From assembly GCF_013167455.1 (NCBI RefSeq), contig NZ_CP038328.1: DNA of 64,000 nucleotides; one strand, given 5' to 3'. The stretch is from Escherichia coli O157:H7. Its GTDB lineage: Bacteria > Pseudomonadota > Gammaproteobacteria > Enterobacterales > Enterobacteriaceae. The notes under the pieces are model-generated. The model was not told where the DNA came from and did not search any database. It worked only from the letters and a program-made list of their open reading frames with translations. Position 1 is the stretch's first letter. Every line of letters starts with the position of its first letter. The position numbers were made by a program, and so were the translations under genes. Positions 2,801 to 27,728 of the stretch are shown piece after piece.

Positions 2801-4770
2801 CACAACTCGCCATTGGCAAACCCGCTCCCCTCGGCGCGCATTACGACGGTCAGGGCGTCAACTTCACACTTTTCTCCGCTCATGCCGAGCGGGTAGAACT
2901 GTGTGTCTTTGACGCCAATGGCCAGGAACATCGCTATGACTTGCCAGGGCACAGTGGCGACATTTGGCACGGTTATCTGCCGGATGCGCGCCCGGGTTTG
3001 CGTTATGGTTATCGCGTTCATGGCCCCTGGCAACCCGCCGAGGGGCATCGCTTTAACCCGGCGAAGTTGTTGATTGATCCTTGCGCGCGGCAAATTGACG
3101 GGGAGTTTAAAGATAACCCGCTGCTGCACGCCGGTCATAATGAACCTGACTATCGCGACAACGCCGCCATTGCGCCGAAATGCGTAGTGGTGGTTGATCA
3201 CTATGACTGGGAAGATGATGCCCCGCCGCGCACGCCGTGGGGCAGCACCATCATTTATGAAGCCCATGTTAAAGGATTAACGTACCTGCACCCGGAGATC
3301 CCGGTCGAGATCCGTGGCACTTATAAAGCCCTCGGGCATCCGGTGATGATCAACTATTTGAAACAATTGGGCATTACCGCGCTGGAACTGCTGCCAGTGG
3401 CGCAGTTTGCCAGTGAACCACGTCTGCAACGCATGGGGCTAAGTAACTACTGGGGTTACAACCCGGTGGCGATGTTTGCGCTGCATCCGGCGTATGCCTG
3501 CTCGCCAGAAACGGCGCTGCATGAGTTTCGCGATGCAATCAAAGCACTGCATAAAGCGGGTATCGAAGTCATTCTTGATATCGTGCTCAACCATAGTGCG
3601 GAACTGGACCTCGACGGCCCGTTATTCTCGCTGCGTGGGATCGACAACCGTAGCTATTATTGGATAAGAGAAGACGGCGATTATCACAACTGGACCGGTT
3701 GTGGCAACACGCTCAATTTGAGTCACCCGGCGGTGGTGGATTATGCCAGCGCCTGCCTGCGTTATTGGGTAGAAACCTGCCACGTCGATGGTTTCCGCTT
3801 TGATCTGGCGGCAGTCATGGGCCGTACGCCAGAGTTCCGTCAGGATGCGCCGTTGTTTACCGCTATCCAGAACTGCCCGGTGCTCTCGCAGGTGAAGTTA
3901 ATTGCTGAACCGTGGGATATCGCTCCTGGTGGTTATCAGGTGGGAAATTTCCCGCCGCTGTTTGCCGAGTGGAACGATCATTTCCGCGATGCTGCCCGTC
4001 GTTTCTGGCTACATTATGATTTGCCTCTGGGGGCGTTTGCCGGGCGTTTTGCTGCCTCCAGCGATGTTTTTAAACGTAATGGTCGTCTGCCGAGTGCCGC
4101 GATTAATCTCGTCACCGCGCATGACGGTTTTACGCTTCGCGACTGCGTTTGTTTCAACCATAAACACAATGAAGCAAACGGAGAAGAAAATCGCGACGGG
4201 ACCAACAACAATTACAGTAACAATCATGGTAAAGAAGGGGTAGGCGGTACCCTTGACCTGGTTGAACGGCGGCGCGACAGCATTCACGCCCTGTTAACAA
4301 CGTTGTTGCTCTCCCAGGGTACGCCGATGTTACTGGCCGGTGACGAACATGGTCACAGCCAGCATGGCAATAACAATGCCTACTGTCAGGATAACCAATT
4401 AACCTGGTTGGACTGGTCGCAGGCAAGCAGTGGTTTAACCGCATTTACCGCCGCGTTAATCCATCTGCGCAAGCGTATTCCCGCTTTGGTGGAGAATCGC
4501 TGGTGGGAAGAAGGCGACGGCAATGTCCGTTGGCTAAATCGATATGCTCAACCTTTAAGCACGGATGAGTGGCAAAACGGGCCGAAACAGCTGCAAATTC
4601 TGCTCTCGGATCGCTTTTTGATCGCAATTAACGCCACGCTTGAGGTAACAGAGATTGTTTTACCTGCTGGGGAGTGGCACGCCATTCCCCCATTCGCTGG
4701 AGAGGATAACCCAGTGATTACGGCTGTCTGGCAGGGACCTGCACACGGATTGTGTGTGTTCCAGAGATGA
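2797..4770 (+). CDS. glgX: glycogen debranching enzyme
   Basis: 657-aa [26 protein letters not shown]...; ATGA start/stop overlap with glgB. Confidence 0.97.
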
Positions 4771-20115: not shown

Positions 20116-21147
<1,032 letters not shown>

Positions 21148-21196
21148 AATCCCTCCCGGATCAGACTCATCAGTGTGACTATCCGGTAGAGGTAAA

Positions 21197-21682
21197 TTAC
21201 TCCAGAGTAATGGGATACAGTAAGGTAAGTGACTGGAATGGTGAAGGTACAAAGGCATACTTCAGATAGAAATTGCGTACTGAATCGTCTAAGGCATGAA
21301 CAATGAGCGCACGAACCCCTACCTGTTGAGCTATGGACATTGTGCGATAGACTGCATCTTTCAACAATGCGACGCCCAACCCTTTACCTGCCCAGGCTTG
21401 ATCAATTGCCAGTCTGCCTAATACGACAACAGGCAACGATTCGGGAGCATTACGTCGCATGGCTCCAGGGGCCAAATTACGTTGAATACTGCCTGTAGAA
21501 AGGCAGTAATAGCCGATTACCTGGCGGGTATTGGCAATACAGATAACGTAAACACGAGACAGACCGGAGCTGTGATTTTTTAACGCTTTCTTTTTTAGCC
21601 ATTCATTCATCCCGTGATCGGAACAGCAAAAGTCAGCCAGATTATGTTCAGACGTTAGGGGAGTAGGAGCCGTTATTCCCAT
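21197..21682 (-). CDS. GNAT-family acetyltransferase toxin (TacT/AtaT/ItaT-like; family members acetylate aminoacyl-tRNA)
   Basis: 161-aa ORF with acetyl-CoA-binding motif Q-x-x-G-x-G (QAWAGKGLG); start overlaps the upstream DUF1778-type ORF by 10 nt; N-terminus MGITAPTPL resembles TacT-like toxins. Confidence 0.8.
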   Translation of the reverse strand: MGITAPTPLTSEHNLADFCCSDHGMNEWLKKKALKNHSSGLSRVYVICIANTRQVIGYYCLSTGSIQRNLAPGAMRRNAPESLPVVVLGRLAIDQAWAGKGLGVALLKDAVYRTMSIAQQVGVRALIVHALDDSVRNFYLKYAFVPSPFQSLTLLYPITLE

Positions 21683-21957
21683 GGCGATTTACGATTCATC
21701 AACGCGTTAATTTTGGCCTGACGCTCAGCAGTGATGGGGGCGTCCAGGGCAGCGAGAAACGCATCGTATTGCTCGTCATCAAGGATGAATAGTCGTTGAT
21801 CTAATAAGATGTCTTGCGCTTCACGGCATGCGGCATCCAGCATAAAATCAGTGCGCGATTTTGCGACCAGATTCGCTGCCATATCAATCAGGTCACGCTG
21901 TGAGGCTTTCGCTCTGATATTGATTGGCGCTTCTTTGCTTTCCGGTTTCATATTCAT
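21673..21957 (-). CDS. DUF1778 / ribbon-helix-helix-like antitoxin partner of the GNAT toxin
   Basis: 94-aa ORF immediately upstream of and overlapping the GNAT gene; acidic small protein with N-terminal ...PINIRAKASQRDLIDMAA... typical of TacA/AtaR-class antitoxins. Confidence 0.75.
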   Translation of the reverse strand: MNMKPESKEAPINIRAKASQRDLIDMAANLVAKSRTDFMLDAACREAQDILLDQRLFILDDEQYDAFLAALDAPITAERQAKINALMNRKSPWE

Positions 21958-21960
21958 GAG

Positions 21961-22010
21961 CCTGTAGTGCGATTTTATATACAGTATAAAGAGTGTACAT
22001 AAAAACGCTA
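21961..22010 (-). promoter_or_regulatory. putative promoter/operator of the toxin-antitoxin operon
   Basis: AT-rich 60-bp spacer between the antitoxin start and the malT stop, containing inverted repeats TATAC-a-GTATA and TGTACA; inferred from the usual autoregulation of such operons, not demonstrated. Confidence 0.3.
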
Positions 22011-22017
22011 TACAAAC

Positions 22018-24729
<2,712 letters not shown>

Positions 24730-24845
24730 TCACTTCACTGTGGAAAATGAGGAAATATTATTTTTTTTGCGCTTCGTAATTAATGGTTATAAGGTCGGCC
24801 AGAAACCTTTCTAATGCAAGCGATGACGTTTTTTTATGTGTCTGA

Positions 24846-24867
24846 ATTTGCACTGTGTCACAATTCC
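24846..24867 (-). promoter_or_regulatory. CRP-like site in the malT promoter region
   Basis: On the malT strand reads AATTGTGACACAGTGCAAATTC; resembles the CRP site described for malTp. Recalled, not verified. Confidence 0.35.
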
Positions 24868-25215
24868 AAATCTTTATTAACAACTCACCTAAAACGACGC
24901 TGATCCAGCGTGAATACTGGTTTCCCTTATGTTCATCAGATTCATTTAAGCAAGGGTTTCTTCTTCATTCCTGATGAAAGTGCTATCTAAAAAGATGATC
25001 TTAATAAATCTATTAAGAATGAGATGGAGCACACTGGATATTTTACTTGTGAAACTGTTTCACTCCTTTACTTAATTTATAGAGTTACCTTTCGCTTTTT
25101 GAAAATACGCAACGGCCATTTTTTGCACTTAGATACAGATTTTCTGCGCTGTATGGCATTGATTTGCTGCTAATCCTGTGGTTTGCACTAGCTTTAAGTG
25201 GTCGAGATCACATTT

Positions 25216-25263
25216 CCTTGCTCATCCCCGCAACTCCTCCCTGCCTAATCCCCCGCAGGATGA
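25216..25263 (+). promoter_or_regulatory. MalT boxes of the malPQ promoter
   Basis: GGATGA at 25258-25263 plus inverted copies (gctcatcc, ctcctcc) just upstream, matching the MalT box consensus GGA(T/G)GA about 70 bp before the malP ATG. Confidence 0.55.
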
Positions 25264-25310
25264 GGAAGGTCAACATCGAGCCTGGCAAACTAGCGATAAC
25301 GTTGTGTTGA

Positions 25311-27728
<2,418 letters not shown>

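Follow-up and report, generated by a model that had tools for sequence, protein, structure and literature searches.

What do the inverted repeats do that fill the short stretch of DNA between malT and the gene pair beside it in Escherichia coli O157:H7? We addressed this question in a 64,000-nucleotide stretch of DNA (the window), in which the region concerned matches E. coli O157:H7 chromosomes at 100% identity. Our answer, read from the sequence, is that the spacer very probably serves as the self-repressing promoter-operator of ataR2-ataT2, with two putative operators of 21 bp each. The genes that frame it are the following.

22018-24723, minus strand: malT (ORF list; Pfam TPR_MalT and GerE matches)
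22018-22020, minus strand: TGA stop codon of malT (ORF list)
21673-21951, minus strand: ataR2, an antitoxin of 92 aa in the DUF1778/TacA family with an N-terminal ribbon-helix-helix (Pfam PF08681; RefSeq CDS)
21197-21682, minus strand: ataT2, a GNAT toxin of 161 aa (Pfam GNAT matches; PDB 7F37 chain B)
20116-21147, plus strand: rtcA (of rtcBA), which converges on the toxin gene

The pair adjacent to malT is the known AtaR2-AtaT2 type II toxin-antitoxin (TA) module of E. coli O157:H7. AtaR2 matches PF08681 in Pfam with E = 9.7e-20 and is identical to chain C of PDB 7F37 (100% over all 92 residues), and AtaT2 is 100% identical to chain B of the same entry, which is composed of four antitoxin and two toxin chains. 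The toxin gene lies directly downstream of the antitoxin gene, the two ORFs overlapping by 10 nt, and both the ORF list and the RefSeq annotation place malT, ataR2, and ataT2 on the minus strand. AtaR2-AtaT2, or ECs4261-4262, forms a 99-kDa heterohexamer, and AtaT2 is toxic and acetylates Gly-tRNA (PMC7470980).

The extent of the spacer depends on where the antitoxin begins. The first in-frame ATG of its ORF, at 21955-21957, would give a protein of 94 aa and leaves 60 nt to the malT stop (21958-22017), and the second, at 21949-21951, leaves 66 nt. The mechanical ORF call takes the first of these codons; the RefSeq CDS begins at the second. The crystallized antitoxin of 7F37 begins with MKPESK, matching the second ATG, and in our alignment only the second is kept in relatives. 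The ribosome-binding signal is also informative.

21961-21963, minus strand: AGG, the Shine-Dalgarno sequence of ataR2 (read from the sequence)

This AGG stands 9 nt from the second ATG versus 3 nt from the first, and relatives carry GAGG or AGG at the same position. Given the RefSeq annotation, the N terminus of the crystallized protein, the conservation, and the Shine-Dalgarno distance, the functional start of ataR2 is almost certainly the second ATG, and the upstream in-frame ATG is probably not used. The distance of 60 bp between malT stop and antitoxin start given in the earlier note is therefore correct for the first ATG, but the likely figure is 66 nt. In two diverged E. coli carriers of the module, the codon between the two ATGs is AGT instead of AAT.

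Within the spacer, two palindromes of a common form stand out. A search for the pattern TGTA-N13-TACA returned two matches in 64 kb, both of them in the spacer, against 0.45 expected. We refer to these putative operators as O1 and O2; together they make up a larger inverted repeat.

21994-22014: operator O1, TGTATAGCGTTTTTATGTACA on the minus strand, TGTA-N13-TACA, 21 bp (pattern search)
21963-21983: operator O2, TGTATATAAAATCGCACTACA on the minus strand, TGTA-N13-TACA, 21 bp (pattern search)
21957-21983 and 21994-22020 (span 21957-22020), minus strand: large inverted repeat with 27-nt arms and a 10-nt centre (repeat search)

The large repeat extends over the spacer to the malT stop on one side and the first ATG on the other; its arms are complementary at 21 of 27 positions (78%), a value reached by none of 2000 shuffles (shuffle maximum, 18). 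It is made up of O1 and O2, one the inverted copy of the other, lengthened by TGAG/CTCA; O1 and inverted O2 are identical at 15 of 19 core positions. The earlier note had proposed TATACaGTATA and TGTACA as candidate autorepression sites for a ribbon-helix-helix antitoxin. The spacer does carry operator palindromes, but their units are not those of the note: TGTACA forms the inner arm of O1 rather than a separate site, and TATACaGTATA is the inner arm of O2 (TATACA) abutting a -10-like box (TATACT, minus strand).

To place O1 and O2 within their family, we aligned 26 antitoxin homologs and took 80 loci from a collection in which every species is represented by one genome. The upstream regions of the homologs share a palindrome with the consensus tGTATAGC-N5-GCTATACa. 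A site matching at least 11 of the 14 core positions lies within 130 bp upstream of the antitoxin in 49 of the 80 loci, 19 of which have two, and the remaining 412 kb of the homologous loci, taken as a control, hold three sites at the same threshold (≥11/14). By eye, some of the loci scored as lacking a site carry weaker copies of the palindrome. The motif co-occurs with a feature of the protein: almost all motif-bearing loci encode a P-I-N-[ILM]-R DNA-reading β-strand, present in AtaR2 as the PINIRAK strand conserved in antitoxin homologs, and the alphaproteobacterial homologs that truly lack the motif also differ in this strand. O1 and O2 score 11/14 and 10/14, respectively, against the family consensus. 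Scored on both strands with a symmetrized PWM built from 65 sites of other species, none of them E. coli, O1 is the best match in the window (20.5 bits), O2 the second (12.3), and the third reaches 5.5, although the training sites were picked with the consensus and the scores are somewhat circular for that reason. O2 is a weak copy, its 10/14 and 12.3 bits comparing with a training median of 27. Both sites are degenerate copies of the family consensus. More broadly, GTATA-N9-TATAC within TGTA-N13-TACA is common to a wide set of DUF1778 antitoxin promoters, which aids the annotation of such cassettes.

The closest relatives of the module, at 79-89% amino-acid identity, are found on Salmonella F-like plasmids and in Pectobacterium, Raoultella, and Pluralibacter. 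In these, similarity to the E. coli locus begins exactly at O1 and runs through the -10 box, O2, and the Shine-Dalgarno sequence to the ATG, with none upstream of O1. Within E. coli, the spacer is invariant in four carrier lineages, whose divergence (≈2%) is too low to inform. Because relatives of the antitoxin are plasmid-borne, the chromosomal E. coli cassette was probably derived from a plasmid-borne module. The closest antitoxin homologs outside E. coli (86% identity) are on Salmonella enterica contigs L083-L086, with the gene at 4001-4279; on these F-like conjugative plasmids it sits in the transfer region, flanked by traD and traT. More than 1100 plasmids, mostly of Klebsiella, carry relatives at 68-72% DNA identity.

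The promoter itself can be read in two ways.

21983-21988, minus strand: TATACT, a -10-like box between O1 and O2 and the favored -10 (conserved position in relatives)
21972-21999, minus strand: an alternative sigma-70-like promoter, with -35 TGTACA at 21999-21994, a 16-nt spacer, and -10 TAAAAT at 21977-21972 (consensus scan)

The consensus scan for promoters returned three sites in the region versus 1.6 expected, with TGTACA/TAAAAT as the best match. The TAAAAT of this alternative is not conserved in relatives. At the position of TATACT, the Salmonella-plasmid, Pectobacterium, Raoultella, and Pluralibacter relatives and other Enterobacterales carry TATAAT, TATAGT, or TATAAC. Both candidates lack a good -35. 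If TATACT is the -10, transcription would start near 21976.

In the mechanism that we propose, the heterohexamer, with the order AtaT2-AtaR2(2)-AtaR2(2)-AtaT2, would set its two ribbon-helix-helix dimers on both half-sites of one operator, a placement based on homology with KacAT, AtaRT, and TacAT. One complex would occupy O1 in the -35 region (about -38 to -18) and one would occupy O2 at the start site (about -7 to +14); with both operators filled, RNA polymerase would be excluded, and the operon would repress itself. Surplus free toxin would loosen operator binding (conditional cooperativity). Read-through from malT would enter the operon in the sense direction and would have to get past the operator-bound repressor. 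Binding by AtaR2-AtaT2, repression, and conditional cooperativity are all inferred from homology, and the architecture of the spacer is as expected for a type II TA promoter, that is, an ordinary self-repression circuit. The literature that we searched contains no data on binding, transcription, operator, start site, or regulation for ataRT2, nor on read-through from malT, and an operator map of this module appears to be unpublished; O1, O2, and the -10 supply a testable one for AtaRT2, a characterized toxin system of EHEC.

The comparison draws on three characterized systems. In this family, a T-A2-A2-T complex accounts for high-affinity DNA binding, and an excess of toxin derepresses (PMC6698736, PMC8138530). 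KacAT of Klebsiella pneumoniae, like ataRT2, pairs a GNAT toxin with a DUF1778 ribbon-helix-helix antitoxin. Its A4T2 heterohexamer uses two ribbon-helix-helix dimers to read both arms of one pseudo-palindrome, to which we liken the ataRT2 complex. The operator in crystal 5ZGN, AAATGTACGGTTATTAACCGTACATGA, has the form TGTA-N13-TACA, with a GTAC core in which the ribbon-helix-helix strand touches G5 and C8 (PMC6698736). KacAT and ataRT2 thus agree in outer geometry, including an AT-rich center, and the KacAT operator overlaps the transcription start, as O2 would at the predicted start of ataRT2. The two differ in that KacAT has a single operator with TGTACGG/CCGTACA arms, whereas ataRT2 has two putative operators with arms of the GTATAGC type. 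Binding by KacAT was seen in a crystal, whereas that by AtaR2-AtaT2 is predicted. A BLASTP comparison of AtaR2 with AtaR gave no alignment, AtaR2 being too diverged from the AtaR/KacA branch, and the link to that branch is drawn from Pfam/phmmer matches and operator geometry.

The closest characterized relative of AtaT2 is TacT of the Salmonella enterica TacAT system (STM3651/3652), with a phmmer E of about 1e-44. With a probe covering -81 to -6, the TacAT complex gives two shifted species, and the sub-probes -81/-46 and -46/-6 have one site each (PMC5449658). The published primers allowed us to rebuild the palindromes of the two sub-probes, TGTATACCGTTTGCTATACA and TGTAAAGCAAATGCTATACA, the first assuming a 1-nt primer overlap. 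In both systems, two palindromes of the GTATA...TATAC family lie in the roughly 80 bp that precede the start codon, those of TacAT being independent binding sites. The primer-rebuilt TacAT palindromes are 20 bp long (TGTA-N12-TACA), 1 bp shorter than those of ataRT2, and the site-to-site spacing is about 38 bp versus 31 bp in ataRT2. In TacAT, DNA is bound only by the TA complex (PMC5449658). Acetylation of TacA by TacT modulates site occupancy; AtaR2 is not known to be regulated in this way.

The same O157:H7 genome also carries the paralogous AtaRT system (ECs4308-4307), at 24464-25425 of locus L087 (O157:H7 NZ_AP018488.1, 4414463-4415424). AtaRT belongs to the same TA family as ataRT2 and is a heterohexameric repressor with conditional cooperativity (PMC8138530). 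Its promoter contains ATGTACGGTGACATACCGTACAT, again TGTA-N13-TACA, an operator that we read from the genome sequence. Each module was inserted shortly after a co-directional housekeeping gene, livJ in the case of AtaRT and malT in that of ataRT2. However, AtaRT has a single operator, and ataRT2 has two; a 149-bp spacer with a strong livJ intrinsic terminator insulates AtaRT, whereas ataRT2 abuts the malT stop with no terminator between. The inner arm of O1, ATGTACA, resembles the AtaR-type half-site in ATGTACGGTGACATACCGTACAT, and cross-talk between the ataRT and ataRT2 systems is conceivable.

The boundary of the module falls at O1, as comparison with E. coli strains that lack it makes clear.

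21125-22013: TA-specific segment of 889 bp, which replaces 49 bp of TA-less E. coli (comparison with TA-less locus L002)

TA-less genomes match the window only from 22014 on, that is, over the malT stop and GTTT (22014-22017); the opening bases of O1 therefore mark the start of the cassette, 4 bp beyond the malT stop. Among 5426 complete E. coli genomes, 394 have the cassette, always at the chromosomal site between malT and rtcA. The 49 bp that it replaces hold a CCGGAT...ATCCGG plus UUUACAUCUUU hairpin, which follows malT in TA-less strains.

Several minor features flank the cassette. Between the toxin stop and the rtcA stop, an inverted repeat CCGGAT-N19-ATCCGG (21156-21186) has the same 6-bp arms as the TA-less CCGGAT-N10-ATCCGG hairpin, with a different loop and flanks, and it folds no better than shuffles (z = -0.6). 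Plasmid and other relatives lack this repeat 3' of the toxin, for which reason we rejected it as a part of the mobile cassette; it probably belongs to the local sequence. A 9-bp direct repeat, CAAACTCAC (plus strand), flanks the cassette at 21132-21140 and 22013-22021 in the manner of a target-site duplication. Its right copy includes the malT stop codon, and its left copy encodes the C terminus of rtcA in TA carriers, K-L-T-D-stop; the protein ends in ...RVMITKLTD in carriers versus ...RVSIE in TA-less strains. In TA-less strains, AAACTCAC is present once. The 9-mer CAAACTCAC occurs five times in the window versus 0.49 expected, and the other three copies (37891, 40087, and 41628, minus strand) show no similarity in their flanks.

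The position of the cassette bears on the 3' end of malT. A terminator scan found no intrinsic terminator on the minus strand between malT and ataR2. The statement in the earlier note that malT transcription must end within the TA promoter or read into it agrees with this result, no terminator-like site lying between the two. The same note saw no malT terminator hairpin in the spacer, which is accurate in that a canonical intrinsic terminator is missing, but the spacer does fold as a strong hairpin in sense RNA, one without a U-tract. We rejected this hairpin as a Rho-independent terminator of malT: it is AU-rich and followed by GAAUAUGAAACC, with no U-tract, and the scan finds nothing there. 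As the malT-ataR2 junction has no intrinsic terminator and the hairpin of TA-less strains has been displaced, read-through of malT into ataRT2 is plausible, and since malT lies upstream in the same direction, it would yield sense TA transcripts. A co-directional malT-ataRT2 junction without an intrinsic terminator is mildly unusual, and it is the only such feature here. The sole terminator-like site of the region lies at 22076-22090 on the plus strand, in the 3'-terminal part of the malT coding sequence (CGGTGGGCGACGCCG and then AGTTTTTGGT), and could halt rtcBA or antisense transcription entering malT; one match is within chance expectation (1.4 per region).

Read-through RNA would contain both palindromes, and their pairing may give O1 and O2 an RNA-level role beside or instead of their role as operator DNA, a secondary reading that we regard as unlikely. 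A 25-bp hairpin starting at the malT stop would then protect the 3' end of malT mRNA and hide the Shine-Dalgarno sequence of ataR2. Production of the TA proteins would depend solely on the short-leader transcript of the operon itself, or on a ribosome that melts the stem as it terminates at the malT stop. The sense RNA of the spacer folds into a hairpin of -28.8 kcal/mol (z = -5.3), as stable as none of 200 shuffles; its antisense counterpart reaches -19.8 kcal/mol. The difference of 9 kcal/mol arises from three mismatches of the DNA repeat that become G-U pairs in the sense RNA only. The stem extends from the malT stop to the antitoxin Shine-Dalgarno sequence, which its 3' arm covers, and in doing so runs 6-7 bp past the operators into the malT stop (TGAG) and Shine-Dalgarno/CTCA. 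The hairpin would form only in RNA started upstream, namely malT read-through; a transcript from about 21977 is unstructured (-3.4 kcal/mol, z = 0). The fold is the strongest among 14 relatives, and no intrinsic terminator separates malT from the operon, whereas ataRT sits behind the good livJ terminator.

Much of this evidence has a simpler source. Any two palindromic operators of a common consensus are mutually complementary, and relatives in unrelated contexts fold too (z from -0.5 to -4.7); the shared consensus and the folding of relatives argue that the hairpin is largely a by-product. Three transition mismatches that all give G-U pairs in the sense strand amount to a 1-in-8 event, and the 4-bp TGAG/CTCA extension is weak evidence. 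The lack of a U-tract means that the hairpin is not an intrinsic terminator, and an Rfam search of 21100-22300 gave no match at E ≤ 1.

A second alternative concerns the repressor rather than the RNA. AtaR2-AtaT2 bound at O1 and O2 might act as a roadblock to polymerases arriving from malT and in this way set where the malT transcription unit effectively ends. In the other direction, vigorous transcription of malT might drive the repressor off its sites and briefly change TA expression. Three observations fit a roadblock: malT and the TA genes run in one direction, with no more than 3-4 bp separating the malT stop from O1; the hairpin that trails malT in TA-less strains has been lost; and the spacer has no intrinsic terminator. 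However, the idea is pure inference, and malT is a weakly expressed regulator gene, so that the traffic would be low. We consider the roadblock distinctly improbable.

Since insertion of the cassette 4 bp beyond the malT stop cost malT its own terminator hairpin, the two ideas can be combined into a second job for O1 and O2, in which the RNA hairpin and the repressor roadblock set the 3' end of malT and gate the translation of read-through RNA into AtaR2 and AtaT2. We think it rather improbable that the operators have acquired this job. If they have, expression of a toxin that acetylates Gly-tRNA would be tied to both the transcription and the translation of the activator of the maltose regulon.

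That the repeats are instead functionless chance palindromes in AT-rich intergenic DNA is scarcely credible. The spacer is AT-rich, as had been stated (33% GC versus 52% for the window), and both short repeats singled out in the earlier note are present, TATACaGTATA at 21978-21988 and TGTACA at 21994-21999, but they are no more frequent than expected by chance. When the 60-mer was shuffled at matched composition, 28% of the shuffles equaled or exceeded it in hexamer palindromes, and 22% contained a 5+5 inverted repeat; we therefore discarded the short palindromes as a signal (P≈0.2-0.3). An expectation of each in 20-30% of such shuffles is what speaks for chance. Against it stand the repeat with 27-nt arms, seen in 0 of 2000 shuffles; the placement in the spacer of the window's only two TGTA-N13-TACA matches; and the retention of the motif in homologs from Enterobacterales to Thiothrix and Desulfobulbaceae, ≈1000-fold over control DNA. 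We also rejected two other candidate identities for the spacer sequence. A MalT box (core GGA[T/G]GA) can be dismissed because the spacer contains no GGA on either strand, and an integron attC-like site, judged by eye, because the repeat is kept as promoter sequence in plasmid and chromosomal relatives.

The earlier note's model, in which convergent malT transcription collides with the TA operon or reads through antisense to it, finds its sole support in the short distance between the genes and can be set aside with near certainty, as malT, ataR2, and ataT2 share the minus strand and the actual convergent neighbor is rtcA, on the plus strand. With malT co-directional with the TA genes, interference would be limited to tandem promoter occlusion or a roadblock, with no head-on collision. 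The corrected orientation recasts any coupling to malT as sense read-through across an unterminated junction, a simpler situation than that of the convergent model and one open to direct test.
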